DNA of 64,000 bases from an uncultured Candidatus Peribacteria bacterium. GTDB lineage: Bacteria > Patescibacteriota > Gracilibacteria > Absconditabacterales > Absconditicoccaceae. This document shows positions 1 through 64,000 of the stretch, one piece after another; position 1 is the stretch's first letter; each line of letters starts with the position of its first letter. Below the pieces are notes generated by a model. The model had not been told where the DNA came from and did no database searches. It saw nothing but the letters and a program-made list of their open reading frames with translations. The stretch spans positions 9,857 to 73,856 of the forward strand of contig CAZLWR010000001.1 in NCBI GenBank assembly GCA_964563595.1. Reading direction: 5' to 3'. Position numbers and translations under genes: made by a program.

Positions 1-3000
1 TGTTTTCCCTGCATCAACAATGGCTTCCAGAAGGTTTGCACCCAATGCGAGGTTACTATTTATCTTATCAATAATGAAGATGGCATTGTTTACCACGATA
101 CCGATAAGTGATATAAAACCAATCATGAATGGCATACTATAGGGATTTCAGGTTATCCAAAGTCATATGTTGGCACCCAACAACGCTGTAATGATAGAAT
201 AGAGAATGATGATGGATTGTGAAAAACTATTGAATTGATAGATAAGAATCAAAAATATAAGAAATATAGCTACCGCAAAGGCAACCATTGTTGCTTGGAT
301 CAAATCTGCATTTGCTGCATTTTCTCATCATGCTTTGTAGGATATTCCTGCAGGGAATTGATAGCTTGATGCAAAGGTGACCAGTTTGGGTTGAAAGTCG
401 GTTGGAGTCTTTCCTATTTCCAGGTCTGATTCTACGGTGATAGTTAAATCTCAATCTTTTCTACTCAAGAGATTGAGAGACTGGTTAATAGAATACTCCG
501 CAACCGAACCAAGCATAATGGGTCAGTTTTTGGTATTGATTATGGTGCTTAAAAGGACTTCTGGTGTCAGATTATTTTTAAATCATTTATATTTTACGAT
601 AATATCTCTGTCTTTTTTCTCAAGTGATATGGTCCCTGCATTTTGACCCAAGAGAGCAGACAATACTTCTCCCTGAAAATCACTTGGATTTAGTCATAGC
701 TCTGCAAGTTTATTGCGATCTCGGGTAAATTCGAATTGTCATGGATTGTTCTTACTGGAATTACTGACATTTGTGGTTCCCTCTAGAGACTTCAGGTAAG
801 TTTCAAAATCGACAGAGACTTTTTTGAGTGAGTTGAGTAGGGAAGTATCATCTGCAATAAGCTGAACTCCTACGGCCTTACCTGTGGGCGGTCAACCTTC
901 TTGTACTTTTGATTCCACGGTATATCACTTTTCTTTGAGATAAGCAAGCATACTGAGTAGTTCATCCTGTACTTCAAAACTATTCTTCTGTCTTTTGCCT
1001 TTTTTGACCAATCTAACAGCGATGTTGATGGTATTATTACTTACTACAAGATTGAAGTTTCTGAGTTCAGGTAGATCTGCTATAATCTGACTGACTTTGG
1101 GGGCCAGGGACTTCATACTGTCTGTCGTTGCTCATTCCTTGGTACTGATAGCAATATTCATGAATTCATTGTCCCCTGAGGGGAAAAGCGTAAAGCCTAT
1201 ACTGCCAGAAAGAAATACAAAACTCATGATCAATAATGCAACAGGCCCGAGATAAGATCGTTTTCTCCAAAATCTATGTTCCAGAATTCGATGTAATTTA
1301 GTACTATACCAATGGGCAACGGTATTTATGAATTTGTCGGTTGCTGGCTGTGCCTCGGCATTTCTTGCTTGCTTTCCTTCTTGTTCGAGTTTTAATAGTT
1401 CTTTATCTTCTTCACTCAGTAGTATTTCTTCGTCTTCTCATTCTTCGTAATCCTTAGGTTTAAAATAGTAATTCTGATTAATATTTAATTTCCAAAAAAT
1501 TGCATTATTGATAGAAGATGCCAAAAATAAACTTGCTGCAAGTGTAATAAAGATGGTAATAGGTATATATGCTAAGAACTTTCCTGTGATACCCGGCAGT
1601 GCAAGCATAGGTAAAAATACAATCATATTTGCTAGCGAACTGGTTATATTTGGTTTGGCATATTGTTTGAGGGCTAGTAGTACAGCGGTTTTTGCATTAT
1701 ATCCCTTCTTCATCAGTTCGTATGCGGCTTCTATAATCACAATGACGGTATCGATCCCCATACCAAAGGTGAGCACCAATGAAAAATTAGTAAGGAAGTT
1801 GAGCGTATAGCCCATCCGGTTCAGGACGATAAAGGTGATGAAAAATGATAGAGGCATAGCGAGGGTAGCAATGAGAGACTGTTTCAGTCCTACAAAAACC
1901 CGCATAATCAGAAAAATGAGTATGACCGATTGGACGGCATTTGATCCTAGTGATGCATAGTCATCAATAATAATCTCAGATAAGTCCGTTGTGTATTCTA
2001 CTTTTATACCTGCATAGATTGGTTTTTGTAATTCTTTCTCGATGAGCTTTTTGGCTTCACCTGCGTTTTCAAATACGTTCGAACGATTTGCCTTGTAGAT
2101 TACAAGCGTGGTTGCTACGTTGTCGCCATCTGCTTTTATTCACCCATATCCTAATGAAGTATCTTTATAATTTCTTTCTATAGTGGCTATGTCTGCAAGT
2201 CTAATATATCTTTTTGGACCCTGTGTGCCAATCGTGAGGTTGATGGGTATATCCATAAGTTCGCTTACAGTTGTTATTTTTCCTTTGATTCTATAATCGT
2301 ACTTGAAATTTCCCAGCGTGTGATTCCCCAGTGGCAAGTTGGCATTAAAGTTCCTGATTGATTGAGTTACTTGTCCAAGTGTTAGACCTAATTGTTGAAG
2401 TCTTTTTTCGTCAAGAAGTACATCTATATCATATTGATTGTCTACTGTTGATCATCATCCCATACCTCATCCATCTCCTACTGAACCAATTTTAGCGTCT
2501 ACAATAGGCCCCTCTCATTTCAAGTCATCCGCTAGTTGGTAAGCAAGAGTTCTTAAGTGGTTTATAGAAAAAGACTTCGCATCAGCATAGAGCATCATTT
2601 CAAACAAAAGTTCGTTTGCTGTACTGATTTCGGTCACCGTTGGGTCTTTCGCGTCTGTTGGTAGACTAACTTTTGCTATTTCATTTTTGACATCGTTGAT
2701 AAAATCTTTTACATTTGTTTCGTTTTTTAGCGTAACAACAAGGCTTGATATACCTACTGATGAACTTGCATCTATATTATCAATTCCATCAAGATTCTCT
2801 ATTTTATCTTGTAATTTGGTAGTAATGAGCTGATCAATATCTACGGGATTTGCTCCTGGATAAGCAGTAGTGATACTGATAAGTCAGAACTTAATATCTG
2901 GCGAGGATTCTTTTGGAATTTGAAAGGCAGCAAAAAGGCCATATCCTACGAGTAGAATAGTTAACATAACAGATATTCTGAAGTTTTTGATTCGTCGTCC

Positions 3001-3027
3001 AAAGAAATTATTTTCTAATGAATCCAT
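1..3027 (-). CDS. RND (AcrB/MMPL-like) efflux transporter; 3' end runs off the window start
   Basis: The minus frame is open from ATG (3027) to position 1 once TGA=Gly. Standard-code fragments 925..1116, 1438..1905 and 2140..2337 share this frame, and I found no in-frame TAA/TAG. The N-terminus MDSLENNFF..VMLTILLVGYGLFA..PDIKF-G-LISITTAYPGANP and the TM block LAMPLSFFITFIVL..GMGIDTVIVIIEA are typical RND features. Confidence 0.85.
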
Positions 3028-3285
3028 ATAGGGGTGCAGCTGCGGGGACATACGAAAAATAGATAACTATAAATTGCACAAGAAGGCATTGTATACAATT
3101 AGACTGAAAAATGAAGACGAGTTGAATGAAATGACAAATTTCTCGAGTTATTATTTTCGTGATAAGTCAATTATGAAGTTATATTTATATGATAATATTT
3201 TCTTTTTATACCATTTTTATGGCATCCTTATTTGAAAGCTAGACATGAAAAGTTATGATGTATTTTTGTACCCTCTAAGAATTTG

Positions 3286-4362
3286 ATGAATCAAAACAGT
3301 GAACTTATTATATCCGATCAGCTAGCCATTGATTGAAAGAAGATATGCCTTGTGGGTAATCGATGACATCATAATTTTGGTGATGAGCTCATATGTATCG
3401 GACTTATTAAGCTGCTTATAAAACACAATGTTGAAGACTGAAAGCTAAAGGCTTTATATGTTTCTTGCGGAGACAGTAGCTTTCTCAAGGAGTTTTATCG
3501 TTATTTTTTTTCAGAACAAGAGTTGAAATATATTCATTATATTCAAGAAATCCCCCATGGGTTTAGATCGTGATGGCGTTTTCTAACTTCTAAGCTTACA
3601 GATCTTTGGACTTACTTTCGTTGTGATACATTTATTATAGGCTGAGGGGAATTGTTTACTGAAGAAACACCAGGTAGTTATCTTTATTGGTTTGTTTCAT
3701 TATTTCCTTTTTGGTTGCGTAGCTTATTTAAACCAACAAGATTATATGTAATGTGAGGTATGCAAGAACCTAGAACTTGGTATAATAAACTACTCTTAAA
3801 GTGGATCGTCAAGTCTACTTCAGCTTGTTTTTTGAGAGATGAAGAAAGCGTGGATGCCGCAAAGAAAACAAAACATATGCTCCCAAGTTCAGCTACTTGA
3901 GCCATATCTCGATTTATAGATACGAGTTATTTTGCATTAGATTATGTCACTCTCCAGAAAAATAACATAAAAGATAATCAGAAGACAAAACATATTATTG
4001 TTAATACTAACCCATTATCTACCAAATGGACTGCAGAACTGTCTGACATTGTCTGACAGTATCATGTCTTGGGATATCAGGTCTATTTCTTACCTGCATT
4101 TTTTACAAGCAATCCGCAACAAGATGATATGGCTTGTTATGAGCTTTTAAAGAAACAACATAACTTTATTCAATTACTGGATCGAAGAAACTGGGATCAG
4201 TTTATCCCTTTATTTATGAGCACAGAAAAGATATTTTGCTCAAGACTTCATGTATTTCTTGTGGCTGCTTTTCTGGATAAAGATGTTCAAGCCTATCCTT
4301 ACCAAAAAAAGATTTCCAAGAATAGGGAAATTCTAAAAAGATCTTGAGTTTTAAAAGAATAA
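3286..4362 (+). CDS. polysaccharide pyruvyl transferase family protein
   Basis: A single frame-1 ORF appears when TGA=Gly; I checked it triplet by triplet. Motifs seen: KICLVGN-W-G-HHNFGDELI, IIG-G-GELF, and a C-terminal SRLHVFLVAAFLDKDVQAYPYQKKI. The antisense ORF 3684..3905 is a shadow. Confidence 0.75.
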
Positions 4363-4469
4363 GTGTTTTATTGTTGTCACAATAGTGCATGCCTCTTGTA
4401 TACTCAGAGGCTTATAGCTGTATTATATTTTTTAAAGATTATATTTATCTACTTTATATAGTATACTAC

Positions 4470-7184: not shown

Positions 7185-8906
7185 ATGCCAAAAAGTAAGA
7201 TTTTACCAACTGATTTTGTTCTACATACGCGAGATGATGTAAGGCTCTATTATGATCAGGTTATTTCTCAACCAATCAATAGCGTTGATGATCTTAAGAG
7301 GTTTATAGATAATACATGCGATCTAGATGATTATCTTTCTGAAGATTACGCTCGAAGATATATCAAACAATCTTGTAATACTTTGGATCAAGACCTCAAG
7401 AAGCATTATGAGGAATTTGTTGATGCAGTTCAACCTGATCGATCAAAGACTTCAGATCTTATTAATAAGCTCATAGTCGCAAGTCCTTATACAAGTGAGT
7501 TGGAATGACCTTATGCTATATTGCTGAGATGAATAAAGAGGTCAATTGAGGTTTATAGAGAGGAAAATGTTCCCTTGGAGCAAGAAGTCGATAAGATTGG
7601 ACGTGCCTATTCAGAACTTGTTTCGAAAATGACTATAGAGCACAATGGTGAAGAACTGACCATGAAACAAGCATCTAAGTTCTTGAAGGAAAAAGACAGG
7701 AATTTGAGAAAAGTAATATGGGATAAAATGGTGACTAGGAAAGCTCAGGATTATGATGCTATCGATGCCATTCTGGACAAGTTAATTTCTCTTAGAACAA
7801 AAATGGCTCAAAATGCTTGATTTACTAATTTTGCAGATTTTAAGCACTTTGCTTTACAAAGATTCGATTATACTTTGGATGACATATATGCCTTCCATCA
7901 ATCAATCTATGAGATTATTTCTCCCTTGGCAAAAAGTATTACTGAACATAGAAGGAAAGTATTGTGACATGAGCTTAAGCCATATGATTTTGCTGTGAGT
8001 ATTTTTGATAAAAGCAGTAACGAATGTTATAAAGACAGCTCTGATCTTGTAGAAAAAATAGCAAGCTCGCTGAATAGCACATTCCAATGATTCGGTGACT
8101 TCATAAAAAAGCTAAGCACTTTAGGACAGCTTGATTTGACCACCAGGAAAGGTAAGGGACCCGGTGGTTATAACTATCCCTTGAGTACATCCGATAGCTC
8201 ATTCATTTTTATGAATGCAGTAAACGATAGTTATGGAATGTTTACTATGTTGCACGAAGCGTGACACGCACTTCATCACCATTATACCTATTGAATTGAG
8301 CCCTCGGCTTCTAGGCATCCTTGATCTGAGGTTTGTGAAATTGCTTCTATGGCTCAAGAATTGCTAAGTCTTGATAAATTGGAGAACTTTTTTGAAAATA
8401 AACAAGACTATACTATCGCTAGTATGGAAAAATTGGAAGATGATATCCTTACATTTCCCTGGATTGCTAAAATTGACTTATTTCAACAACGACTCTATAA
8501 AAATCCAAATCACACCCATGAAGAAAGAAATCATAAACGATGAGAATTAGCTCAGCAATATGCTAATAGTAGTGGCTTGGGTCAATATGATTCTTGGATA
8601 GGAGATTATGAAAATGCTTTATTATACCGTTGGCAGGGACAAATGCATATTTTTGATTTACCAATGTATTACATTGAGTACGCTATAGCAGGCTTAGCGG
8701 CAATTGCTATGTGGAAGAATTATTTGGAAATCCCTGAACAATGAATACAAAACTATATAAACTTACTTAAAGTAGGTAATACAAAAACAATGCCGGAGAT
8801 ATTTGAGACATGAGGTATCAAGTTTGATTTCTCTAGAGAGTATGTTCAAGAGCTTATGAATTTTATGCATACTAAATTGGAAGAATATTATAATAAGTTG
8901 TGATAA
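7185..8906 (+). CDS. pepF: M3-family oligoendopeptidase F
   Basis: The zinc motif HEA-G-HALHH has its Gly encoded by TGA at 8262..8264. The C-terminal part carries FQQ-W-LYKNP..EERNHK-W-G-EL with CGA at the Trp positions. All fragments (7173.., 7575.., 8349..) are in one frame. Confidence 0.85.
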
Positions 8907-8940: not shown

Positions 8941-9492
8941 ATGACAGATTTACAGCATATTAAGAACTTTTGTATTATAGCTCACATTGATCATGGTAAA
9001 TCTACCTTGGCAGACAGATTGATGGAGATCACGGGTACGATAAAAAAGTCTGACCATGGTCAAGTTTTAGACAAGCTGGAGTTAGAACAGGAAAGAGGAA
9101 TCACGATCAAACTCGCACCTGTTAGAATGAATCGAAAGGGCTATCAACTCAATCTCATTGATACTCCGTGACATGTGGATTTCCAGTATGAGGTAAGTAG
9201 ATCTTTGGCGGCAGTGGAGGGTGCAATATTATTGGTGGATGCGAGTCAGGGTATCCAAGCACAGACCTTGAGCGTACTTTATATGGCTATGGAGTATGGC
9301 CTAGAAATCATCCCTGTTTTGAATAAAATAGACCTACCTGCTGCAAGACCCGAAATGGTTGGTAAAGAAATAGAGGGATTGTTGTGAGTGCCCTATGAAG
9401 ATATCCTTGCAGTGAGTGGTAAAACTGGCCAAAATGTCGAACAACTTCTCGATTTAATTATTGCTAAGATACCCAGTCCAAGACTAGATTAA
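8941..9492 (+). CDS. lepA: LepA/EF4 GTPase-domain-only fragment (183 aa; truncated or pseudogene remnant)
   Basis: [27 protein letters not shown] (TGA 9169..9171), NKIDLP and IAKIPSP are present, then TAA at 9490..9492. The roughly 420 aa that normally follow are absent, and the next gene starts at 9519. Confidence 0.8.
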
Positions 9493-10788: not shown

Positions 10789-11556
10789 TTATTTTTGAGT
10801 TAACTTATTGGTTTCTCATTGTATTATTACTTTATAATAAGGACATACTTGTTGCAAAGGACATGGCTCACATTTTGGACTTCTAGCTGTGCAGTGATAT
10901 CTTCCAAATAATACGATACTATGATGAGCAATTGTTTTGTTTTTTTGGTAGATTAGATGCTCTAGTAGTATGCTTGTTTGTTCTGGCATATTTGTTTCCA
11001 CTCGTCCCAGCCTATTACACACTCTGTGAACGTGCGTATCTACTCCAATTTCTCCAGATCCATATAGTATATGACTTACTACCTTTGCAGTTTTAATGCC
11101 CACTCAGGGGAGTTCGGTAAGAACATCGGTAGACCTTGCTATAAGGTAGCCATACTCCTTGTAATATGATTTTTCTTTATTACTTGTCAAGTGTATATTA
11201 GAAGTAGATTGGGTTAGTAACAATTGAGCCGTCTTATAGATGTATAGTGCTTTTGCTTTATAAAAGCCTATGGATTTAATCTGTTCTTTCAACTTATCTC
11301 ATCATAGTTGTATAATATCTTTTGGAGATTTTATAATCTGAAACAGAGCAGTAGTCACTTTGTTTACTTGTTTATCTGTACATTGAGCGGAAAGAATGAC
11401 AGCAACAAGTAATTGGAATGGTGTTTCTCGATGAAGTTCAGTTGTGGTAGATGGAAACATCTTATGAATAACCATGAGTTCATTATTGATTTGCTTTTTG
11501 GTTTTTTTCATGAATGATTTAGTTATAGGTGAGTTATTGTCATTATATAAGGTCAT
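10789..11556 (-). CDS. nth: endonuclease III
   Basis: Motifs seen: FQLLVAVILSAQCTD; HhH motif LP-G-VGIKTA with Gly=TGA (11104..11106); VDTHVHRVCNRLG-W (CGA 11002..11004); and a 4Fe-4S cluster C-x6-C-x2-C-x5-C (CTARSPKCEPCPLQQVC). The true start may be the internal MKKTKK. Confidence 0.9.
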
Positions 11557-12914: not shown

Positions 12915-15656
12915 CTACTGAGTAAGTAGAGATGCGATGACTTCGTCTTCTAATTCATTGGAAATATACTTTTCTATCGGTCTAGCACCGTACTGTGCAT
13001 TGTAGAGTTCTTTCACTTTTTCTTGTATCATTTCTTCACTGAAATTTGGAACCACTGCTAGTGGATTTGCTTTTCGTTGTTCTGCAAATTGTTTATAAAG
13101 TTTTTTGAAAATGTGTTCCAATTCAGTATGACTCAAGGGAGTAAATACTATTCTATGATCAATTCTATTGATGAGTTCTGGTGGCATGAAATCGTTGAGT
13201 TTCTCTAGTACAAGTTCTTTGGTGTGTTCAAATGCTGCTGCATCTGCTGCACTATCGTCTCCTGTATAATAGTTAAAACCAATTTGCTTACCTTGTTGTG
13301 AGAAATATTCAGAACCGATATTGCTTGTCATAACAATAATGGTATTTTTGAAATCAATGACTCTACCTTTACTATCTTTGAGTTGTCACTCATCTAATAT
13401 TTGAAGAAGTATATTGAGTATCGATCTGTCTGCTTTTTCTATTTCATCAAACAATAATACTGAATAAGGTTTGCGTCTTATTTGTTCATTAAGCGATCCA
13501 CCTTCGTCATATCATACATATCATGGTGCAGATCAGATTATTTTTGATAATGAGTACTTTTCCATATACTCAGACATATCAATCCTAATGAGAGATTTGG
13601 AATCGTGAAAATAATGTTCAGCAATAAGTTTTGCTATATATGTTTTACCAACTCCCGATGGTCACAAAAATAAAAATGATGCAATGGGTTTTTGTTTTGG
13701 TATGATAGATAATCTAGATTTTTGAATAGCTTTGATAACTTTTTCTACCGCTTCATTTTGTCAGAAGATATGTGTATCGAATGTTTCTCTCAAACTTACT
13801 AATTTTTCTATCTCTGATTCGCTAATAATATCTGTAGGTATACCAAGCTTATCGCTCAATACCTGTCCGATATCTCCAACATCTACTGTTGGTCTAAGGT
13901 GGGCTGGCATACTAGATTTTGATTTTAGATTTTTGATTTTAGTTTTTAAAACCAATTCTTGTTGCTTGAGTTCGGCAGCCTTGAAATAATCTTGATTGCT
14001 TACCGATTGTTCTATTTGTTTTTCTATAATTTTGAGTTCATCAGTAATAGTTCCGTATTCTTCATTGGTCTGTAACTTGGAAAGCAGTACTGATTTTCTT
14101 GCACAAGCTTCATCTATCAAGTCGATTGCCTTATCGGGTAGATGTTTATTGAGTATATATCTTGTAGATAACCCGACAGCATATTCGATAGCTGCAGGAC
14201 TTATATTTACATCATGGAAGTTCTCGAATCTTTCTTTGAGTCATTGTAAAATGGAAACAGCGTCGGTTGGCGTCGGCTCTTCCACGTTGATCTCTTGAAA
14301 TCTTCTTTTCAAAGCTGCATCTTTTTCAATATACTTTTGATATTCATCAAATGTTGTTGCTCCGATAAGTTTAATCTTGCCTCTTGCGAGCAATGGTTTG
14401 AGAGTATTTGAAGTTTCTCCTGCTTGTCCTTCATGTCCACCTGCTCACATAATTGTATGTATCTCATCGATAAACAAGATAATCTGATTGAGAGGATCAC
14501 TAGCTTCTTCCAACACTGATTTTAATCTTTGTTCAAACTCACCACGATACTTTGTGCCCGCGATCATACCGGCCATATCAAGGTTGATAATCTTATGATT
14601 CTTAAGCCTATCAGGTACATTTCCTTCGGCTATTCTTTGTGCTAGACCTTCAACAATAGCTGTCTTACCTACGCCGGCTTCACCGATCAACATAGGGCTA
14701 TTCTTGGTTTTTCTTAATAAGGTATAGATAATCTGATCTATTTCTCTTTCCCTTCCTATGACGGGGTCAAGAGTACCGAGACTGGCATCATTTGTCAGAT
14801 TATTTCAGAAATATTCGACTGTGAGTTTTTTAACAGGATCTTCCCCTTTTTCTTCTATATCAATGCTACTTTGGTGTTTACCTGTGCCGGACAATAACTC
14901 ATCTTCGTCAGTGTCAGCTGCAGAGGCAAATATAGGATTAATTCTTTTGTTGATAGGTGTTTTGTTCGCAACTGTTTCTTGTAAGATCTGCATAAGTTTG
15001 TTAATAAGAAGATAGAGTTGTTTGTTTATATCTCCTTCATCCTTATTTTGCAATCATTTGGCTGGTTCTGGTTCTATACTACTTGCCAATGCTTGTAACT
15101 CTAGGATATCCATCTTGCTAAGTTCTGAAATAGTGATACCATATTGATTCACTAGCTCTTGCAAGAGCTTGAATAGCTGTTTCGGTGCTATACGTAATGA
15201 CTCCATCCGCTGTATAGTCTGCGGTAGACTCTTTTGTATTTTCACTAAACCTATTTTATTTTTTATTCACCATTGTACAGTTGCTTCAGATATTGCTCTT
15301 ACTGCTATATGAAATAAACTGATCAGATTATCGGTTGTATTAATATTTGCTTCATGTAGTTGGTTTTGTAAGCTTGGGGTAAGTTGTAATTGCATGGTAA
15401 TTTGGTGTGGGATAGGCTGCTGGAGTCTATATATTTCATTTGCATAATTTATAAGCTGATCTACTTTTTTTAGTCAAACCATATCAAAAAATACTTCAGC
15501 ATAGGGTTGTGATTTGATAAAGTTAATGATACCAAAAAACAGTTCATCGCCATCAATGATTTGTTTGCCCGCAAATACTGTATACATACCAGCAGATGCG
15601 ATACAATTGAGATATTCTTTATCCGAGCTTCCTTGTATTCAAAATTGAAAATTCAT
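12915..15656 (-). CDS. clpC: ClpC/ClpB-type AAA+ chaperone ATPase (two nucleotide-binding domains)
   Basis: 913 codons, with all fragments in one frame. D1 Walker A is [17 protein letters not shown] and Walker B is [16 protein letters not shown]2 has ..[44 protein letters not shown]-like DYFKAAELK linker is present. Confidence 0.88.
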
Positions 15657-17698: not shown

Positions 17699-18256
17699 AT
17701 GAACAAGAAATTATTTTTCGGAACCAGTGCCGTATTGAGTCTTTTAGCAACAGCCATCTTGTCCTTCCAGGTGTACGAACGTACTCATCTGGATGTGCCC
17801 AATCAGCACGTCATGGAGCTGGATGGAATTGAAGCCGTCGAATCAGCGTTTTCCGCCCAGAAGCCGATCTTTCTGAAGTTCGGTGCGGACTTCTGTCCGC
17901 CATGCCGGGCTATGGAGGCTAATATGAAGGCCGTCGCACCCTGGCACTGCGGGGACGTCATCCTCGCTACGGTTGATATCGTCGAACAACCAGAGCTGGC
18001 TTATGTTCTGGCTGACGAAATCGGGCTGGAACTGAATGCCATTCCGAAGCTCGTGGTGCTTTCGCCGGGCCAGGATTCGGCTTATGCCCCTGCGCTCATT
18101 CAAGGCGGCTTTGTTCGTTCGATTCCGGGCCTGGAATGGGAACTGCTGAAACTGGGGCACTTTTCGCCTCTGTATTATCTCTTATCGGCAGTGGTACTGT
18201 TTGGAGTCGGCATCTTCTGCATGTTCCGCTTCAGAAGCCTATCGGTAGTGGCATAG
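17699..18256 (+). CDS. membrane-anchored thioredoxin-like protein (CPPC active site), compositionally foreign
   Basis: This is an intact 185-aa ORF under any code (no TGA, no CGA), with FGADFCPPCRAME and N- and C-terminal hydrophobic segments. GC-rich third positions (ctg, gcc, ggc, ccg) contrast sharply with the flanks. Confidence 0.8.
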   Translation: MNKKLFFGTSAVLSLLATAILSFQVYERTHLDVPNQHVMELDGIEAVESAFSAQKPIFLKFGADFCPPCRAMEANMKAVAPWHCGDVILATVDIVEQPELAYVLADEIGLELNAIPKLVVLSPGQDSAYAPALIQGGFVRSIPGLEWELLKLGHFSPLYYLLSAVVLFGVGIFCMFRFRSLSVVA

Positions 18257-23562: not shown

Positions 23563-24210
23563 TTAATTTGAATAATAATCCAGTGGTATGGTATCTAGGG
23601 TATCGCCAATAAAACTTTGGATGGAAATATGTCCACTATAATTTCCTTTCTTGTACCTGACCGTACTCGTGACTTTGAGCAATTTATCGGGGTGAGCCTT
23701 TTTACCTTCTGGGTCTAAGTATACTGGGGTAAAGGTAATAACTCTGGAGAATGGACTACTTTGAGTTCCTACTATAGAAAATGATGAAAAGGTGGAGAGC
23801 ATGGAAAACGTGCCATCGCTGCTATCTCTTTTGTATAGTTTTGTATTAGATAGTGCGGTTGCTGGTTGAAAGCCATAGCCTTCATCAAACTGTGTGACGA
23901 GTATCCGACTTGTGCTTGTACTAGTGTCACTTGGATTGTGAAAGTAAAGTCAACAAGCACCATCATAACTATTCGCATCCAATTCTAAGCAGTTCCATAA
24001 CCATCACTTTTTTACATTGGTATCGCGACGATTGTAGACAATTTCTATTCATTCTTTGGCCAGCATGGTCGCGGTTGTTTTGAGTTTGGTTCTCTCTGAT
24101 AGTCCTATATTAGCAATAATCAGATACGATATGGACAAAATTCCTACAGAAAAAACTGCAATGCTTATAAGGATTTCGATAAGAGTGATTGCTGCTATTT
24201 TCTTTTGCAT
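23563..24210 (-). CDS. prepilin-type N-terminal cleavage/methylation domain protein (type IV pilin / pseudopilin)
   Basis: MQKKIAA-ITLIEILISIAVFSVGIL carries the class III signal with Glu at +5. 216 codons, with the frame verified. Confidence 0.75.
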
Positions 24211-26033: not shown

Positions 26034-27350
26034 CTAGTATGATAGAGGATATTTTTCACACAATTTCAAGACCTTGCTGTGTAGTATCTGCTTATCTAGC
26101 ATATTTGTCAAACTGTTATCGGATGATAAGCAAGAGTTGATAATCGCTGCTAGAGTTATCATATCGTCCTCCCTGAGTCACCTTGTGGTGATTGCTGGAG
26201 TTCAGATTCTGATTCCCGAAGGGTCTAATGCGGGCCTTGGGTCGAAAGGTATGAGTTGTTTGTTTACTGATAACCCTATTTCTTCAAGTGCTTTCTCTGC
26301 AGTTTTCCCAGTATGTCAGGTCTGTGTATCCTCGTATTCCAATGTACTGCTTTGTATTTTTTTTGTGACATCCATTACGATGAGATGGTTATCGGTACCT
26401 CCTGTTGCAAGAGTCCAACCAAGCCTAATAAGCTCCTTTGCCAATGTTTGTGTATTTTTTATAATCTGATGACAATATGCTTCTCGGTTTATTTCAGGAT
26501 CGAGTATTTCTTCAAAAGCAGCAGATTTTGCTACTAGCACATGATCAAATGGTCATCATTGTACCCCGGGGAAAACTCATTTATTAATACCTTTTTCAAT
26601 GCTAGGGTTCGTATCTTTTTTATAATATATCAATGCCCCTCTTGGTCATCTTAATGTTTTGTGAGTTGTTGTAGTTATTATATCGAAACCTGCTTCAAAT
26701 GGAGATTCTATACACTTTCACGCAACGATTCCTGCGATATGTGCTATGTCAGCCATAAGATATGCATGGTGATTATGTTCTTTAACGAGTAGCTCATTAA
26801 CTTGTGTAAACTTTTCTCGTTCAATACTTCTGGGATAACTTGAAAATCCTGCGAGAATGAGTTTTGGTTTGTGCTGGATGGCCAATTCTTTCAGATTATT
26901 ATAGTCTATATATCAGTTTGCATCTACTCCATAGTGAATAAAGTTGAAATACTTACCGCTTGCATTGAGTTTATAGCCATGTGTGAGATGTCATCCTGCA
27001 TCAAGTGACATTGCTAAGATGGTATCTCCAGCTTCAAGTAATCCCGTATATACTGCAAGATTAGCTACCGAACCAGAAAGCGGCTGTACATTTACTCATC
27101 GTGCTTCTGAATCCAGATCAAATATCTTGAGTGCTAGTTGTTGCGTATAGAGTTCTAGTTCATCAACTACTTCATTGCCTCCATAATATCTTTTACCTGG
27201 ATAGCCTTCTGAGTACTTATTGGTAAACACATTGGCATAGGAATGAAGCACATTCGGGGATACGTAATTTTCTGATGCAATAAGTTCTAAAGAATCTTGT
27301 TGCCTTAGCAGTTCTCTTTTTAAGAGTGAGATAAGATAGTCTGAAATCAT
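26034..27350 (-). CDS. glyA: serine hydroxymethyltransferase
   Basis: Motifs seen: [48 protein letters not shown], and SGIRI-G-TPAITTR-G-L (Gly=TGA). Confidence 0.93.
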
Positions 27351-30094: not shown

Positions 30095-30111
30095 ACTATA
30101 AGAAAATCCAT

Positions 30112-30183
30112 GGTTCCATCGTTCAATGGATAGGACATGCCCCTGCGAAGGGCATAATGCAGGTTCGATTCCCGCTGGGACCA
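30112..30183 (+). tRNA. tRNA-Arg (anticodon GCG)
   Basis: Acceptor GGTTCCA/TGGGACC, D-arm GTTC-AATGGATA-GGAC (A20 present), anticodon stem TGCCC/GGGCA with loop CTGCGAA, 4-nt variable region, and T-loop TTCGATT. The minus-strand ORF 29954..30184 is its shadow. Confidence 0.8.
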
Positions 30184-37728: not shown

Positions 37729-40700
37729 CTACTTCTTGATACTAAAGTTAATAATGCCTTCTTCTACGTCGCATTCTCCAGTATAATCTGGATTCTCAAT
37801 TGATCATGCGATGGTACCAAGTGTTTCTCTGGCGATGTAATCTCCATATTGAGATAAAATACTTTCAGCTTCAAAGCCAGATATAGTTAAACTAATTCTG
37901 TCGGAAACATCATAGCCAGTATTTTTTCTGGCTTCTTGGATGGATCTGATAAGTTCTCTTACGTATCCTTCCAGTTTTAACTCTGGTGTTATAGTTGTAT
38001 CTAGCATAAGAACTAGATTTCAAGAAGTTATAATATCTCCCGTAAGATCTCCTTTTTCGTATCTCATTTCGTATTCATCTGGCTGGAGTATAATGTCTGA
38101 CACTTTGACTGTATTGTCTGACAAAAGTTCAAACTCCCCGGATTTTGCAAGAGTATTTATTTCTGCAAATCTTGAGCCGAGCTTCTTACCTAACAACTTT
38201 GCATTTGGTATACAGATTCTATTTATTTGATTATCTAGTTTTGCATCTACGATGAGCTCTTTAACGTTTAACTCTTCCAAAATAGTAGTTTCGTATTTTG
38301 GATTGATTTGCTTATTAATTCTGAGTGATTGAAGGGGTTGCTTTACTTTGATTTTAAGCGAACCTCTCAGTGAAAGACCAAGCTCCACAATTGTTTTAGT
38401 TAAATCCATATCTTGTAGTAATGTAGTATCAACCAATGTGTTAATCTTACTCGAGTCAGTTCGATAATCCAAATGTACCGACTCTTTGTTTGTAAGATTT
38501 CTATAGATATACTCTGACAAGAAAGGCATAAAAGGTGCCAGTACTTTGCATAATTCTATAAGAACTACATATAATACATCATAACCAGACATCTTATCAC
38601 TATCATTTTCAGATTTCCAAAATCTGCGTCTATTGCGGCGTATATACCAATTAGTGAGATCATCCATAAAACTAAATAATGGGGCGGTTGCTTTTTGAAT
38701 ATTATAGGCTTCCATTTGTTTATTTACTTCCGTGATGAGTTCTGCTGTTTTTCAGATTATTCGTTTATCAAGATCGTTTTTAAATTCATAACCTACGAAA
38801 TCACTAATACTGTGCTTAGTTGGAGCGAACTTGTCTATATTTGCATAGGTAGTGAAAAATGAGAAGCTATTCCACAAAGGAAGATTCACTTTTCTGATTA
38901 TTTCTTTTCGTCCTTCTTCATAAAAATTCATATCACCTCAAACGAGTATAGGACTAGATGCAAAGTACATCCTGAGGGAGTCAGAACCATGTGTCTTCAT
39001 ACTTTCTTCCGGATCTGGATAGTTACCATAGGATTTGGACATTTTACGACCATCATTTCCTGCGAGCACACCCGTACAAACAACATTGGTAAAAGCAGGG
39101 TTATCAAAGAGCATGACTCACAATGCATGCATAAAGAAAAATCGACATCTCACTTGACCTAGATACTCTGCAACATAATCTGCAGGAAAGGATTGTTCAA
39201 ACTTTTCTTTATTTTCAAATGGATAATGTACTTGAGCATAAGGCATAGATCCGGATTCGAGCCATGGATCCAATACTTGCGTTATTCTCGTAAACTTTTC
39301 ACCTTCACGTATTCACCAAATTGCATCAATATAAGGACGATGAAGATCAAATTCTTTATTCTCTAAAGTATTTCGGTATTTCTCTTTTCAATTTAAAACT
39401 CTCTTTTCGAGTATTTTACTTCCTGTTTGATCCAATGCAAATATATCCTCTCTGCTGCCGCATACTATTATTTTCCCGCTTTCTGCTACCCAAACTGGCA
39501 TTGGAGTTGCCCAATATCTAGTACGACTAATACATCGGTCAGGAGCAGATTCCATGGATTTTAAAAATCTACCATGCTTGAGATGCTCTGGTACTCGATT
39601 TACTTTTTCATTTTCAGCGAACAATCTTTCTTTGATTGATTTGATGTCAATAAACCAGTTGTCTTGCGTTTTGTAGATTAATGGTACTCCTGTTCTTGGG
39701 CACATAGCAACCGAGTGAGTAATAGACTCTTTCTTGAAAAGTAATCACTTCTCTTTGAGTTTGTCCATCACAAGATCATTCGCATCGCGGTAGTATACTC
39801 CTTTCATATCTGCTATTTCCTCGGTATAGTTCCCTTGTTCGTCCAGGGCAGCAGATTGAGTTAAGTCATGTCTTTTTCCTGTTTGAAAGTCATCTTCTCC
39901 AAATTCAGGGGAGGTATGTACGATACCTGTTCCATCGCTGTCAGTCACATAATCAGCAAGGTATACTTTGTGATCATTAGTGCTTTGTCAGACATAGTAA
40001 TCAAATGGTGCTTGATAACTTAATCACTGAAGTTCGGCCCCTTTAGATGTATATATAATCACATATTGAGAAGGATCTTTATAAAACTTAGAAATAAGGT
40101 TTTCTGCTAGTATGAAATACTCCTGTAAGACTAGATCAAATAGCTGTAGGTATACTATATCTTTGTTCACTACGAGTGCCATATTTGCTGGTATAGTTCG
40201 TGGTGTCGTAGTTCGTGCTAAGAAGGAAAATGGGTACTTATCTCAATTACCTTGCAACGCTCAATGTTCTACTATTTGTTTGTAGTGGTAAAGATCTTTG
40301 AAGGTTCTTATCTCTTCTTCACTATCTATGATAGCATTATTTATGGTGAAATTTCGTCATAATTCGTTTTCACTTGTTCATATATATGTATACCCATATG
40401 CAGTATGCTTATCTGACTCTAATAACTGAATCTCTCAATGTATTATCTCCGCTTCATAAAACTCTAGATATGCTTTGTGTGAATTTCTAATATCTTTGTG
40501 GGCACACACTCTTTTTCAAACCTTTACGCTCACTCATAATTCTTCCTGTAACTCTCTTTCTAGGGCTTGAGTCGCAGTTTCTCATAAATCTACTTTACCG
40601 CCGGGAAACTGCCAATTTCCATGTTTTTGATTATAGACCGATAGTATTCCACCTTTACTATCTTTGATTATAGCCTGTGCATAGCATATAAATCCGTCTT

Positions 40701-41394
40701 GCGTGGCTTCATATTGATTTCAATCTGCTAAGGCAATGTCTTTTCAGATTAGTGGAAATTTCACAGTGATAGCCGGATCAGCAATATCTGCATAACTATT
40801 ATCCAATGCTACTTCATAGTTACTAATTGGCGTATTGAGTTTGGTAGAGTATAATGATACTCTCTTGCCTTCATAAATCATACCCTTATCTCGTAGAGAC
40901 TTGAATACTCGCATAACAGATTCCATGTAATCATTGTCCATGGTTTTGTAGGCGTTTTTGAAGTCCACCCATCTTCCGATATGATCTACATATCGCTCCC
41001 ATTGGTCACTGACATTTTTGGTGTAATCATAACATGCTTCAATAAACTCTTTAATACCATGTGCTTCAATTTCTTTGTTAGACTTATAGCCGAGTTTATC
41101 CTGTATTTTTTGTTCTACATAAATTCCATGGCAATCCCATCCTCGTACTCTTTCTATTCTTTTCCCTTTTTGCGTCCAGAATCTTGTTACGATATCCTTT
41201 ACTACGCTGCTCAATAGGCTTCCATAATGTGGTAAACCAGTAATGAATGGTGGTCCATCGTAAAATCTATAGGCATTCTCTTCGGATCTTGTTTCAATAG
41301 ACTTTTCGAAAATTTGATTATCTTTCCAATATTGTAAGATTTCTTCTTCTAACTGGAAGAAATTTGGAGAACTAGGAAGTTTTGGGAAAGACAT
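37729..41394 (-). CDS. ileS: isoleucyl-tRNA synthetase (type 2 / eukaryote-like) carrying an internal Nudix-domain insertion
   Basis: 1,221 aa in one frame. Motifs seen: [37 protein letters not shown] (Trp=CGA at 40213..40215 and 40198..40200), [17 protein letters not shown] (CGA 39535..39537), and GRKMSKS. Confidence 0.92.
40260..40735 (-). other. Nudix hydrolase domain inserted in IleRS between the ..ITVKFPLI.. strand and WTTTPWT
   Basis: The canonical Nudix box GX5EX7REUXEEXGU is read in frame: G-KVDL(G)[15 protein letters not shown](G)V at complement(40531..40599). It is preceded by [31 protein letters not shown]. Confidence 0.8.
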
Positions 41395-41579: not shown

Positions 41580-44500
41580 ATGTTTCAACGAAGTAAAAAA
41601 AAGATTATACTCTTTATAGTACTTATTGTTTTCAGTGTTGATACAGTACTATCTGGTACTATTTTTTGATGGAATAAAGCACGAGCAGCAGAAACAAACT
41701 TTACTGATATTATCAGCGTTTTCATTGATAAAAATATTGCTGCCAGTGCAGGAAGTGACCTTGATTGGTTTACGAAACAGTATTTGTGAAGAAATTACGA
41801 CAATGCTCAGGTAATGGTATTTCAAATTGACCCATCGGGAGTCTCTCCAGCGGATATGGCTAAGATCAATCAAAATCTCTATTTGGAATGAAAAAAATGA
41901 GTTCCTAGTAGGTTGATCGGGACCGTTCTTATTGGTGATTTGAAATTACCGGTGGTCAATAAAGACTGATTTGTTTTTTCAACTATCTATCCGTTAGTAG
42001 ACTTTGAAAAACCTAAATATTATTACGATAAGAATTCAGATTATTTTCTTTATCAGTCCGAAGGCAATAGCCAACCTGAAATACGGCATAGTGTGATTAA
42101 CTTTGCGAATGATACGAGTAAGTACAAAATATATCTAGATAAACTGAAACAGTACGCTGCGGATCCGCAGTCGTGGGTGAAACAAGGTGTATGGTATGAT
42201 GATATCATCCATCAAAAACAAACTCTCAACGCTGATAATATTTCTAAATACGTTAACAATGCTGTGTTTAGCGAAGACGTAATGTACAATAGATATACCA
42301 ACTTGATGGTTGATATCTTCCAGGCCTTGCACAATAGTGGAGTAGTAGATACTTTGGGTGACTATGATGATCAGGTTATTAATAATTTGGAAGATCCTTA
42401 TTACAATGATCCAGAATTTCAGGAAGTGAAAGATCAATATAAAGGTCAGATAGAAAAGTTTTGGAATTTGATAAAATCACTAAAATCATTGGTAGGTTCG
42501 AATAATACCGACTCTTCAGATCCAGAGCCTTCAAATTCTGCCTTGGGCACATTGCCCAATAGTAAGTTTATCAATACCTTATTTATTCAAAAGGTGGTTG
42601 ACGGATTTATGAAAGATTATGTAGAGTTGTATGGGACCCTCTATTTTGATACCAAAGAGAAAAGGTTGCAGCTTGGTGGAAGATATGTTGCTGGACAAAC
42701 AGGTACTGCAGTAGATGATCATATTACGATGACTAGTAGATGGGATGAAGTCAGTAAGCAATTGTTAGCTGATGCGAATACGAAGCTGGAAAAAGCACTT
42801 GATGATAAAATTGAGCAGGAGGGATATAGTATGAATGTCTTGGTTCCGACTAGAGTGGATATCAACGGTTGTAACAATGTAGAAACAAAAGACTATGATG
42901 CGAAGAAATCGTATGAGGTGTACTATTTTGGTAGGCCGGCTGAGGAAATTGATAACGCTGAGGATTTTGGTATTTACCGTGGTACCTTCAATAATATTAG
43001 ATCACTTGTAAAGCTTGATGGTTTCGACTATACCAGTTGGATGGATGCCCAAGAGAATCAATCAATTGGTGCAACCAGGGGAGAGAATGCAAGGGAAGTG
43101 GAAGCACATAGAGGCTATGATTTCTCATTGATAGAATACGATCAACAGGAATTTGAAAGGGTAAAGAGTATTATGCCTTTTAGTAAACATAAGAAAAAAA
43201 GAAAAAACATTGATAAGTTTATCAACTATTACCGAGCAGGATATACGCCACTCAATATTGACCCTAACAGTGAAGATGTGAGACTGAACCAAACAAGAAT
43301 GGACTATACACAGTTGTGGAATCCTTGGAAGAATAGAACATTGGGCGGACCTGTATTTGATATAGCTTGAAGTAGAATCACTACTCCTGATAGGAAAATT
43401 AATTTCAGTTATGGATCGGATGATGATGAAGACGAAGATGATGGAGATGAGGATACGCCGGATATTGTTACTAAGTCTTATTCAGGTTATTCTGATAGTT
43501 ATTTAGGAGCAGACTTTTTTGGAACTACCTTGCAGGTTGCCAGAAATAATGGTAAGTGGATAAAAGTTCAGAAAAGAAAAGTAAGAAAAAATGGTAAGCC
43601 TAAGAAAAATCGAGAGGATGTTAGACTATTTGCTTTGGGTGGATTATCTAGCAATGATGGTTTATTCCTCAAAAATCCTAATGATGACGGCTATATTACG
43701 ATAAATAGTTGTGCGAGCAATAACCGAAATCGTTATTTTAATTCAGTTGATAGTAGATATTTCCATAAATCACCGACTTTAGATGAGCTCTACGGTAAGT
43801 TCACCAATCTCAATAAGGTTAAAATGGATATCAGCTTCGGCTGTGACTCTCCTGATAATGGCAATTATGCTGAGGGTCAGCAGTGCCAAGGAATAGAGTT
43901 TAGACGAAGTGATTTCTTACCGGGCTTTAATGATAATTCCGCCTCTCCCTGGTATTTATCTAAGGATGATTATTTTATAACCTGAGGCAAGATTTATTTC
44001 AATAGCACTGCGAAGTTTTACTTTGCTGGTCAAGATATTGATTTGAGTAACGTAATAGGTGAACTTACTGGTGGAAAAATAAAATTTCAATATGATGGTA
44101 GAAATATAGCACTAACGTATGCGAATGCTACTTTTGATTGCGAAGAGCTGGAGACCGACGTAGAAGAAGGTCTTGCTTGTGTGGGTTTGAGTTTCGAGAT
44201 AGATCATAGGAAGCACTTTATAGATTATAAATACTTTGACTATGATACTACTGGTCAGGTTATTTCATTTTATCCCTGAGCAAAAATTACTGTCATGAGC
44301 AAGGATTATCCCTTGTGAGGCATGGTGGTCCAAGTCAATGGTGATAAGTGAGAGTTCTCTGGCAAACAACTTCAAATAGGTGGTATGAATGAATTCACCC
44401 TCGAGAGACCGGTTGATTCTCCTAGGTATGTCAATTTCCAGGGAATAGGAGGGGATAAGTTGACTTGGGTCTATCCGAATATGTGGAAAGTGGCGGTCTA

Positions 44501-56661: not shown

Positions 56662-58089
56662 TTATTGTATTGTTTCCCAGTGTACTCTTGTTTGCTCCAT
56701 GGTGTCTCTATTTCTGATTGTTACGGTACCGTCTTCGAGTGATTGATGATCAATACAGACACAATACGGCGTACCGACTTCATCTTGTCTACGGTATCTT
56801 TTACCAATATTCCCACCGGCATCATATTCACATTTGTAAGTCTTTTTCAGTTTATCATATATTTTTCTACCTAATTCTACCATGTTTTCATCTTTTTCTA
56901 TCAAAGGTAGTATAGCGTATTTGATTGGTGCAATCTCGAAAGGAAACCTGACTACTACTCTTGTTTTATCATCACTGCCTTCTCCCTGCGAAGCAATGGT
57001 TTCTTCATCGTAAAACTCTAGCATACTTGCCATCATACAACGACCTACTCCCATAGATGTTTCTACGCACCATGGTATATATCTCTGACCTGTTTTTGGG
57101 TCAGTATATTGCATACTTGTTTTTGAATATTCTTGATGTTGCTTAAGATCAAAATCAGTACGATTGTGAATGCCTTGCACTTCTCCAAATCACCATGGGA
57201 AGGCAAACTCGATATCCGTAGCTGCTGCTGCATAGTGAGCGAGTTTATCGTGATCTTTATATCTTAAATGTTCTGGAGATATACCAATAACCTGAGTCCA
57301 AAAATCCATACTTACCTTTTTCCGCTCATCAAATACCTTCATAGCGTTATCGGGATCGGCTGGTACAAAGTATTCAATTTCCATTTGTTCGAATTCTCTT
57401 GTTCTAAACAAAAATTGACCAGGAGTAATTTCATTGCGGAATGCTTTACCTATTTGAGCCAGACCAAAAGGTATCCTATTCCTCGTAGTGTCGCATACAT
57501 TTCTAAAATCAGTAAATAAACTCTGGCAAGTTTCTGGTCTCATATATACTTTGTTTGATTCGTCTGCTACGGGTCCAAGGGTAGTATTAAGCATAAGATT
57601 GAAATTTCTGCATTCTGTCCATTCTGGCTTTTCTTTTAGTCCCTTTGGTCGTATTTCTTCTTCAACAATAAATCTTCTCATGTTTTCATTTCCTCGGGAT
57701 TCCGGAGATCAGTTGAAAAATTCATATTCGCTTGGATGCTTTTTATATGAGTCCTTTTGTCTGCCTTCGATATACTCTTCGATAAGTTTATCTGCTCTAA
57801 ATCTTTGTCCGGTTTTTTTGTCGTCAATAAGTGCATCACTAAATCATCCTACATGACCGCTTGCGATCCAGGTGGTAGGGTGGGCGATTATAGCAGTATC
57901 CATCAAGATAACATCATCACGCTCTTGCGTATAATATTTTACCCAAAGATCAGTAATATTTTTTCTCAACAATGCTCCATATGGTCCATAATCCCATGCA
58001 TTTGCTAATCAACCATATATTTCACTATTGGGATATACAAAACCCTTTCTCTTGGCTCGTGATACGATTGTTTCTAGTGGGAAAGACAT
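56662..58089 (-). CDS. glyQS: glycyl-tRNA synthetase (homodimeric class II, GlyQS type)
   Basis: Motifs seen: [88 protein letters not shown], and RYIPWCVETSMGVGR. Confidence 0.92.
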
Positions 58090-58188: not shown

Positions 58189-58626
58189 TTATCCATCGAA
58201 TTTTGCTTTTCTGTTGGCGAGCGTTTCGCCTCTTTTGCGTTTGTTGTTTAATCTTTTTTCTTTTTCTTTTTTTGGTATCTTGGTTTCTTTTCTTTCTTTG
58301 GGTTCTATGAGACATAGTTCGATCATCTGTTTGAGTTTGCGAACGGCAGTGGCGAGATTGGTGATTTTACTTCTTGTTTCTTGGCATACGATAGTCAGTT
58401 TCCCTTCTGCATCAATTTTATTACGATACTTTTCTTGTATTCTTTGTTTAACTCCCTCAGGGAGTTTCGTATTGCTCAGATTCCAATAGAGTTGTACTCT
58501 GGACTCTGTTTTGTTGACATGTTGTCAGCCCGGTCAAGAACTCCTCGAATACTGCGTTTCCACTTCTTCTCTTACGATGCTATCAAGCACTGCTTGATCA
58601 AGTACTGGGTATTTTGTTTTGCTCAT
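58189..58626 (-). CDS. arfB: alternative ribosome-rescue factor ArfB (peptidyl-tRNA hydrolase, GGQ domain + basic tail)
   Basis: RSS-G-PG-G-QHVNKTESRV has the second Gly of GGQ encoded by TGA (58525..58527). The C-terminal tail is Lys/Arg-rich. Confidence 0.85.
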
Positions 58627-62815: not shown

Positions 62816-62902
62816 AATTTACAAACAATTGAACTTCAGTATTGAAATATTATAATAATTGCAATATTTGCATCAATGATCTGATTATAAATTCATTTTC
62901 CT

Positions 62903-63391
62903 ATGAAATACAAAATTCTTACTGGGGCAACTAATCCAATTCTGAGAGCTGTCGCTGATCCGATAGACCATTTTACTAACGACATTGCTCAATTGTGAGA
63001 AGATATGAAGAAAATCTGTCATGATTACGATGGAGTAGGTTTAGCGGCTCCTCAAATAGGCTTGCCCTTGAGGATGATTTACATTACGCATTGGAGAAAG
63101 ACCCCAAAGGGCACTAAGTACATCAATGATCAGATTATGATAAATCCCGAAATATTGTCTCAATCTGAAACACTGAATACAGATGTGGAGGGATGTCTCA
63201 GTCTGCCTTGATTAACTGGTAAAGTGAAAAGACATGATTGGATTAGAGTGAAATTTCAAGATATTGAGTGAAAGGTAGGTACTAAGAACTATAAAGGATT
63301 TGACGCAAGAATCATACAGCACGAGATAGATCATATCAATGGTGTCTTGTTTATTGATAAAGCTAAGGATCTAAGAAGTTCAGATAAATAA
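62903..63391 (+). CDS. def: peptide deformylase
   Basis: The three signature motifs are present: GVGLAAPQIG, EGCLSLP-G (Gly=TGA 63209..63211), and HEIDHINGV. Confidence 0.93.
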
Positions 63392-63407
63392 TATAATAAG
63401 AAATGAG

Positions 63408-64000
63408 CTATTCACTGTAAGCATGATCTACAAGTTTAGGTTTTTGCAATCATACATAACTGAAGAAAGTCTTAATCAGGTGCAATTTTTTGAAGGGGAT
63501 ATTGGCGATAGGTATCTTCATTGTTTTGATTTTTTGTTGAAATTGCTCCAGATCAAGATCAAAATCATCATTAATAAGCAGTCTTTCGTCTCTATTGAGC
63601 CTTCCTGATAAACTTTCTTTTATGACTGTTCTATAGTCGTCTAGATCTATCGATCTACTCAGATATAGTCATAATAAATCATCGTCTTGCAGTTGTGCTT
63701 TGGTCAATCATACATCATTAAACTCCATCCTACCTTTATCTTTCTTTTCCTCTAAATACTCTTCAAACTTTCTATTAACGTTGAATACTCATCACTTTTG
63801 AATAACTCAAAATGCCTGATCCTGATATCCAAGAAATGTCTTATAACCTGAAAGTTTTATATGACCAAAGATTTGTCCTTTATACTCTATTAAAATTGCT
63901 TTATGCAAGCCATCTTGGAAAATTCACTTTGTGTACATTTCTAGATCATTGCACGAACCAAAGGTATTGTCATGCTGATAAATGGTTGGTTCTGATCTTT
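63408..64000 (-). CDS. hypothetical protein; 5' end beyond the window
   Basis: The minus frame is open from the window end to TAG (63408..63410), with 7 in-frame TGA and no recognised motif. Confidence 0.5.

Follow-up and report, generated by a model that had tools for sequence, protein, structure and literature searches.

In organisms that use NCBI translation table 4, according to the literature, release factor 2 (RF2) has been lost and a tRNA with the anticodon UCA is present. Table 25 (Candidate Division SR1 and Gracilibacteria) goes back to Campbell 2013 and Rinke 2013, as these are cited in PMC8629427. For the Absconditabacteria the Codetta survey (Shulgina & Eddy 2021, eLife, PMC8629427) predicted a code in which UGA stands for glycine (Gly) and, in addition, CGA and CGG stand for tryptophan (Trp). 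The recoding of UGA is accompanied there by a tRNA-Gly(UCA) and the loss of RF2, and that of CGA and CGG by a tRNA-Arg(GCG) for the CGY codons (PMC8629427; PMC13092985); one tRNA(UCG) would read CGA and CGG alike (PMC8629427). A 2026 paper takes CGA/CGG as Trp as given (PMC13092985), and the Codetta authors themselves state that experimental confirmation of their predictions is needed (PMC8629427). Both elements of this code are therefore already known, UGA as Gly since 2013 and CGA/CGG as Trp by prediction since 2021. Here we examine the code in a 64,000-nt stretch of DNA from an uncultured bacterium (contig CAZLWR010000001.1 of assembly GCA_964563595.1, positions 9,857 to 73,856 of the forward strand); this whole stretch, with a GC content of 36%, is called the window. 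Judging from sequence comparison, it very probably belongs to an Absconditabacterales genome with UGA read as Gly, CGA and CGG both read as Trp, and UAA and UAG as the only stops. A sequence-only reading of the window had described the code as code-25 behaviour and placed the DNA in the Candidate Phyla Radiation. It was incomplete rather than wrong: its UGA, its stops and the kinship with Absconditabacterales and SR1 hold, but it missed that CGA and CGG are Trp and not arginine (Arg).

The evidence that UGA is a sense codon comes from the reading frames themselves. Stop-to-stop open reading frames (ORFs) were compared between the standard bacterial code (code 11) and a code with TGA as sense, with TAG-sense and TAA-sense codes as controls. 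With TGA as sense we found 20 ORFs of at least 300 codons against a single one under code 11, and the longest ORF grew from 466 to 4365 codons, whereas neither control gave a comparable gain. When a single greedy caller of non-overlapping ORFs was applied to both codes, coding coverage rose from 34% to 92.5%. The resulting TGA-sense map of positions 1..64000 holds 53 ORFs with 357 in-frame TGA, 95 CGA and 27 CGG in 19,675 codons, and all but one of these ORFs (52 of 53) contain TGA. Of the 52 complete ORFs, 36 terminate at TAA and 16 at TAG, and none at another codon. In genes supported by homology 194 TGA codons lie in frame 0, and the ORF lengths agree with those of homologues (IleRS 1221 versus 1222 aa, GlyA 438 versus 422-441 aa). 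Pfam domains run uninterrupted across TGA in AcrB-like, GTP_EFTU, ClpC-like, ATP-synt gamma, SHMT, TsaD, Sua5, IPPT, TrpRS, IleRS, FolD, GlyRS, RF-1 domain, DnaX and Def sequences. UGA is a sense codon here, and the gain in ORF length is far beyond chance. The comparison of ORF lengths had been proposed by the sequence-only reading, whose view that the standard-code ORFs are artefacts and that only TAA and TAG terminate is borne out; its estimate that coding density roughly doubles was fair, the factor depending on the cut-off (1.6 at 50 aa, 2.7 at 80 aa).

For the meaning of UGA, TGA was masked as X, so that no residue was presupposed. GlyA (SHMT; 26034-27350, minus strand) was compared with 72 more distant standard-code homologues that are free of the Trp-at-TGA artefact signature described below. 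The mean Gly fraction was 0.69 at the TGA columns, 0.85 at the columns of the query's own GGN codons and 0.02 at all others, while the Trp fraction at the TGA columns was 0.004. A scan of a genome collection with the universal motif DMSEYMEK yielded 79 standard-code bacteria and one SR1 relative as reference for the ClpC-like ATPase (12915..15656, minus strand, 13 TGA). Against the 79 standard-code genomes, nine of ten alignable TGA columns have a Gly majority, seven of them at 100%, and Trp occurs in none. In solved FtsH structures the residues opposite the seven well-aligned TGAs of FtsH are G, T, G, G, G, A and G, that is, five Gly and no Trp. With ClpC, GlyA and IleRS pooled, Gly ranks first at 21 of 28 TGA columns; among the 1931 remaining columns it does so at 43 (Fisher p = 2e-27).

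Codon comparison with relatives leads to the same reading. A matrix of codon pairs was built from syntenic relatives, using alignments with neutral X masks; the loci were four of the metagenome contigs recovered by the motif probe described below and further loci reached through GlyA homologues, syntenic over g19-g41 of the window. Where the window has TGA, the relatives have GGN in 191 cases, TGA in 71 and TGG in none, and in the opposite direction the window's GGN codons pair with TGA in the relatives 181 times. At the Gly-conserved IleRS columns of the nine probe contigs the codons are GGN (162) and TGA (29). Counting TGA as Gly brings the Gly content of the window from 4.8% to a normal 6.4%, with 25% of Gly codons written TGA. 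The Pfam score of SHMT is 439 bits with TGA as G and 403 bits with TGA as W, and Peptidase_M3 reaches 116.5 bits with G and goes undetected with W. By these comparisons UGA stands for Gly and not for Trp, cysteine or selenocysteine, in agreement with what had been read from the sequence alone. The same codon use was observed in the closed genome of Ca. Absconditicoccus praedator (CP054059, 28% GC), in whose GlyA 20 of the 26 columns with conserved Gly are written TGA; judged by these columns, UGA is the dominant Gly codon in that organism.

Individual motifs named in the sequence-only reading could be located as well. All five for which it gave coordinates are in-frame TGAs in the motif context claimed: the Gly of DTPGH, the G3 motif of a LepA-like GTPase (9169..9171, plus strand), where the GTP_EFTU domain spans the codon; the Gly of HEAGH in an M3 (PepF-like) peptidase (8262..8264, plus); the Gly of EGCLSLPG in peptide deformylase, Def (63209..63211, plus); the Gly of LPGVG in the HhH motif of endonuclease III (11104..11106, minus); and the second Gly of GGQ in an ArfB-like protein (58525..58527, minus), which reads SS-x-PG-x-Q and has a further TGA at 58534-58536. 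The consecutive TGAs for the GG of FPGVQGGP in GlyA were found at 26556-26558 and 26553-26555 (minus); of 84 distant homologues, 72 and 74 have Gly at these two positions. The Walker A motif of FtsH was half right as an example: the TGA at 22336-22338 (minus) is aligned with the invariant Gly, but the one at 22324-22326 (minus) faces the Thr of GPPG-T-GKT in Thermotoga FtsH, a variable position. The general statement that TGA falls on invariant glycines likewise applies to about three quarters of the alignable columns (the 21 of 28 above) and not to the remainder. Two of these genes show peculiarities of their own. The LepA-like gene (8941-9492, plus) consists of the GTPase domain only (183 aa), ends in TAA and is followed by a DUF218 gene; in a related contig (L100) LepA is full length, with 649 aa and with EFG_C and LepA_C. 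The M3 peptidase ends in TGA followed by TAA (8901-8906, plus), so that its last sense codon is TGA; this UGA may once have been the stop, with translation now running on to a reserve stop behind it.

CGA was examined chiefly in IleRS (37729..41394, minus strand), which contains 20 TGA and 14 CGA codons. In an alignment of 120 homologues, ten of twelve well-occupied CGA columns are dominated by Trp, with a mean fraction of 0.72 for W and 0.11 for R. For other codons the fractions in this alignment are R 0.80 and W 0 at CGY columns, R 0.68 at AGR columns and W 0.88 at TGG columns. CGA and TGG columns both show a minority of 'R', which is the signature of mistranslated CGR codons in the relatives. 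Compared with the solved cytoplasmic IleRS 9w01_B, seven of twelve CGA codons fall on W, two on F or Y and none on R. Those on W include both Trp of WTTTPW (40213-40215 and 40198-40200, minus), the Trp of D-W-x-ISR-x-RYW (39535..39537, minus) and the Trp of Q-x-R-G/C-W-F (39142..39144, minus). In GlyA, 67 of the 72 standard-code homologues have Trp where the window has CGA at 26817..26819 (minus). Pooling ClpC, GlyA and IleRS, we found Trp as top residue at 11 of 15 CGA columns compared with 3 of 1931 others (p = 1e-23), and Arg at none of the 15 compared with 56 of 75 columns of CGY/AGR codons (p = 4e-8). Pfam scores rise further when CGR is translated as W, namely to 451 bits for SHMT, 383 for tRNA-synt_1 and 115 for Anticodon_1.

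The codons of relatives again point the same way. The window's CGA codons pair with TGG (70), CGA (32), CGG (6), codons for Tyr or Phe (11) and only once with an Arg codon, and its TGG codons pair with TGG (108), CGA (40) and CGG (6). Its CGY and AGR codons for Arg pair with Arg (490) and Lys (120) codons and once with CGA/CGG. As an independent probe, public metagenomes were searched for the IleRS motif A-W-T-T-T-P-W-T-x-P-x-N in which CGR encodes each of the two Trp. Under the standard code there should be no WTTTPW motif of this kind; nine metagenome contigs matched the probe, while among viral contigs there was no match. The two motif columns of each probe contig are fixed by the search pattern and were left out of all later pair counts. 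At the Trp-conserved IleRS columns of the nine contigs we counted CGA 55, TGG 49 and CGG 22 times, whereas the Arg-conserved columns contain AGA (81), CGC (21), AGG (16), CGT (11) and AAA (9), and CGA or CGG not at all. The closed SR1 genome Aalborg_AAW-1 has CGA at 6 of 19 Trp columns of IleRS and at none of the Arg columns. All these comparisons support CGA as a Trp codon in the window. With 44-48 per 10,000 codons it reaches more than half the frequency of TGG, and of the Trp codons in the window 122 are CGR and 161 UGG, so that about 43% are written CGR. Besides its Trp codons the IleRS has an insertion of about 170 aa (40231-40743, minus) just ahead of WTTTPW/CP1. It carries a NUDIX domain (45 bits) and falls between residues 215 and 219 of the solved cytoplasmic enzyme. 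Homologues of IleRS within the clade carry NUDIX, His_Phos_1, acetyltransferase or PF06821 domains, and in L100 NUDIX and DUF5915 were called as separate ORFs behind an IleRS of 1022 aa.

CGG is rare (27 codons, 12-14 per 10,000), and scoring it as R or W against Pfam profiles gave a mixed picture. W instead of R raised the score of AcrB by 5.9 bits (two sites) and that of GlyRS by 1.0 bit, and lowered that of TsaD by 1.9 bits at a site that is variable and was scored with a generic profile. A chimeric query made of eight small CGG-containing proteins had no matches in a homology search. This first test was superseded by the comparison of codons with relatives, in which six independent CGG sites pair solely with TGG (10) or CGA (4). 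The sites are g23 aa102, in a pilin-like protein (23905..23907, minus; TGG in two relatives, CGA in one); g29 aa120, in a membrane protein (29933..29935, plus; TGG and CGA in two each); TsaD aa218, in YPGGP-x-ID (31839..31841, plus), where three relatives have TGG (YPGGPWIS); and three positions of the giant ORF g41, namely aa169 in QPEI-x-HSVI (42084..42086, plus; TGG in relatives), aa1099 (44874-44876, plus; paired with TGG) and aa2430 (48867-48869, plus; paired with CGA). We consider CGG as Trp to be settled by this comparative evidence.

Several points weigh against the code proposed here. About a quarter of the TGA columns are not Gly in homologues, and about a quarter of the CGA columns are not Trp; such columns are expected at variable positions, yet they leave room for some low-level ambiguity. 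The CGG that follows CPPC in a thioredoxin-like protein (17906..17908, plus strand) fits Arg better (W costs 3.3 bits against generic thioredoxin profiles), and this site has no relative for comparison. All the support is comparative. Neither the window nor some 250 kb of flanks scanned in relatives yielded a tRNA with anticodon UCA, UCG or CCG, and loss of RF2 (prfB) is taken from the literature, as 64 kb cannot show absence from a whole genome. It might be possible that CGG, and perhaps CGA, is ambiguous between Arg and Trp, or that CGG is still in transition. The rarity of CGG and the Arg-like site after CPPC would fit this, as would the mixed status of CGG that Codetta reports for the sister group Gracilibacteria (PMC8629427). 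However, every one of the six sites that can be compared with relatives is of the Trp type, the Trp columns of the relatives contain 22 CGG and their Arg columns none, and a tRNA(UCG) would read CGA together with CGG, which makes separate meanings of the two codons hard to maintain (PMC8629427). We therefore regard ambiguity as improbable. Still less probable is table 25 in its plain form, in which CGA and CGG would remain Arg and the signal at Trp columns would reflect lineage-specific substitutions of Trp by Arg. Table 25 is what NCBI and current gene predictors assign to the clade, and both the site after CPPC and the 1.9 bits by which the generic profile prefers R at the variable TsaD site would suit it. 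But that same TsaD codon is TGG in three relatives, Arg at both Trp of WTTTPW and at those of DW-ISR and RGWF would be unprecedented for a class-I synthetase, and substitutions of this kind would not account for Pfam scores that rise with W. Nor would they explain why CGA and CGG pair with TGG and with each other and virtually never with AGR or CGY, why Arg is top at none of the CGA columns, or why the Arg-conserved columns of nine relatives are free of both codons.

When the genes of this organism were called for the protein database, a Mycoplasma-type code (table 4, UGA as Trp) was assumed. It yields the same coding density as table 25 by construction, common pipelines choose between tables 11 and 4 only, and the database copy of the window's GlyA indeed has W at all 11 TGA positions. 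However, in homologues Trp makes up 0.4% (GlyA) and 0% (ClpC) of the residues at TGA columns, where Gly dominates, no TGA pairs with TGG in relatives, SHMT loses 36 bits and Peptidase_M3 disappears, and the Trp content of the proteins would triple to about 2.4%. UGA as Trp was rejected on column composition, codon pairs and Pfam scores, and we give it next to no credence. The same applies to a standard code combined with pseudogenes, assembly errors, selenocysteine, programmed read-through or C-to-U editing of CGA and CGG. Isolated genes can gain an in-frame TGA by any of these routes, and editing has a precedent in plant organelles, where an apparent 'CGG = Trp' is truly due to CGG-to-UGG RNA editing. 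But the 357 TGAs are spread over 52 of 53 ORFs, they occupy conserved Gly positions, and the pattern recurs in syntenic relatives, unlike damage to isolated genes, and the essential IleRS, GlyRS, FtsH and DnaX cannot all be defunct. Editing of CGA would produce UGA; since UGA reads as Gly here, the Trp seen at CGA contradicts it. Selenocysteine, read-through, pseudogenes and editing were rejected given the number, placement and conservation of the codons. The code that fits best would thus differ from the standard at three codons (UGA as Gly, CGA and CGG as Trp) and terminate at UAA and UAG.

The window also contains parts of the decoding apparatus. It has five tRNA genes, Pro-UGG, Thr-UGU, Phe-GAA, Ile-GAU and Arg-GCG, and no match to any other Rfam family. 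The tRNA-Arg(GCG) (30111..30184, plus strand; A20 and A73, read by hand) occupies the same position in relatives; by its anticodon it can read CGU and CGC only, which would leave CGA and CGG free. In line with this, nine of ten CGY columns in the pooled alignment have Arg on top, and Arg is written as AGA, AGG, CGU and CGC only, so that the CGN box is split. A scan of the flanks in relatives (L001, L081-L103, about 250 kb) recovered tRNAs for Arg(GCG), Pro, Phe, Ile and Leu only. Following the literature on the clade, a tRNA-Gly(UCA) would read UGA after being charged by GlyRS, for which the window encodes a class II enzyme of the alpha2 type (56662..58089, minus), and a tRNA(UCG) and/or tRNA(CCG) of Trp identity, charged by TrpRS (36355..37338, plus), would read CGA and CGG. 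Presumably RF2 has been lost, so that no termination would occur at UGA, and RF1 would serve UAA and UAG. The sole protein with an RF-1 domain in the 64-kb window is the ArfB-like one (145 aa), and the window encodes no other class-I release factor.

Some related contigs go further in their use of CGR. Among the Trp codons of IleRS we counted 18 CGA versus 13 TGG in L088 and 16 CGR versus 5 TGG in L083. In L082 (AACY020536692.1), with 56% GC, the IleRS has 22 CGA, 6 CGG and no TGG in 752 codons. L089 (Ga0256838_1001635), with 52% GC, has an intact IleRS with 34 CGG, 2 TGG and no TGA; 18 of the CGG lie in Trp columns, and the adjoining ORFs terminate in TGA. This suggests that UGG has been almost or fully given up for Trp in L089 and L082, and in L089 without recoding of UGA. 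That Trp is moving off UGG altogether in the clade, with 43% CGR in the window and more in related contigs, is a tentative idea that we consider rather unlikely. One reading would be that wobble of the U34 of tRNA-Gly(UCA) endangers UGG, so that selection shifts Trp to CGR. L089 in turn might have reverted UGA to a stop, or it might represent an independent capture of CGG that low GC does not explain; C-to-U RNA editing is an alternative explanation for the CGG pattern of L089 and L082.

The consequences are practical rather than conceptual, and they are already visible in the databases. In the protein collection the window's GlyA appears with W for each of its 11 UGA codons, which means that the gene was called with table 4, and with R where the conserved Trp belongs. 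These W-for-Gly and R-for-Trp artefacts recur in about half of its close relatives. Since the database copies were called with table 4, W in close GlyA relatives marks a TGA and not a true Trp. Pipelines that pick table 11 or 4 by coding density have produced this W-for-G entry. Calls with code 11 fragment the genes, and calls with code 4 place Trp at every Gly encoded by UGA. As one instance of the former, a related contig called under table 11 (L091) has its FtsH broken into five or six fragments. Even table 25 mistranslates 122 codons (about 0.6%), with Arg at about 43% of the Trp positions, including the catalytic-core Trp of IleRS. To our knowledge there is no standard NCBI table that translates the window correctly. 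Such errors pass into structure prediction, the building of hidden Markov models, phylogenomics and metaproteomic databases for the Absconditabacteria.

Other parts of the window deserve a brief mention. The giant ORF g41 (41580-54569, plus strand) encodes 4329 aa with an N-terminal membrane anchor, contains 64 TGA and 35 CGA/CGG, and is 51% identical over 2623 aa to its counterpart in L087. The only ORF without TGA (g12; 12153-12788, minus) combines a winged helix with a Lys/Ala-rich repeated tail that resembles the histone H1-like HC2; a weak HxlR match appears for it only with CGG as W. At the other extreme, an ORF at 18485-19600 (plus), which matches no family, has 20 TGA in 371 codons; its share of 5.4% is threefold the average of the window. 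Of the UvrD-type helicases, a stand-alone ORF of 177 aa (35789-36322, plus) matches the C-terminal domain and nothing else. It has the same length in relatives, at 74% identity, and this conservation indicates a real small gene and not a broken helicase. Two gene-poor stretches of about 1.3-1.5 kb (16190-17650 and 58630-59975) hold only short TGA-dense ORFs without homologues, and no Rfam match even at E<1, no GC peak and no RNA gene was found in them.

How does the window compare with known systems? Its placement is based on best named matches and on synteny with metagenome contigs. The best named homologues are from Ca. Absconditabacterales (63%) and Ca. Absconditicoccus praedator (49%) for GlyA, from SR1 HOT-345 (59%) for ClpC and from SR1 Aalborg_AAW-1 (46%) for IleRS, with Gracilibacteria homologues at 47-48% identity. 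By the Codetta prediction, CGA and CGG as Trp would place it in the Absconditabacterales specifically (PMC8629427). The window offers clean and independent comparative support for that prediction, and it holds TrpRS, GlyRS and tRNA-Arg(GCG), components that an in-vitro test would need. With table 4, which is used by Mycoplasmatales, Entomoplasmatales and insect endosymbionts, the window shares a sense UGA and the fragmentation of genes under code 11, but UGA is Trp there and Gly here. Anaerococcus and the RFN20 Bacilli (Onthovivens) resemble it in their low GC and in a codon of the Arg CGN box taken over by Trp (PMC8629427, PMC13092985). In those bacteria, however, CGG alone is reassigned, CGA remains Arg via a tRNA-Arg with anticodon ICG and UGA is a stop, whereas in the window most of the reassigned Trp codons are CGA, and UGA has changed its meaning as well. 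NCBI table 25 has UGA as Gly and the stops UAA and UAG in common with the window, but keeps CGA and CGG as Arg where the window uses both as Trp. The closest system is the Absconditabacteria code (PMC8629427), with the same three reassignments, a low GC content, AGR and CGY for Arg and a tRNA-Arg(GCG). The use of CGA lies at or above the upper end of what that study reports (44-48 versus <37 per 10,000), although its values are from aligned Pfam columns and are not strictly comparable. Apart from the decoding tRNAs, which were not seen in the window, we find no difference in kind between the two.

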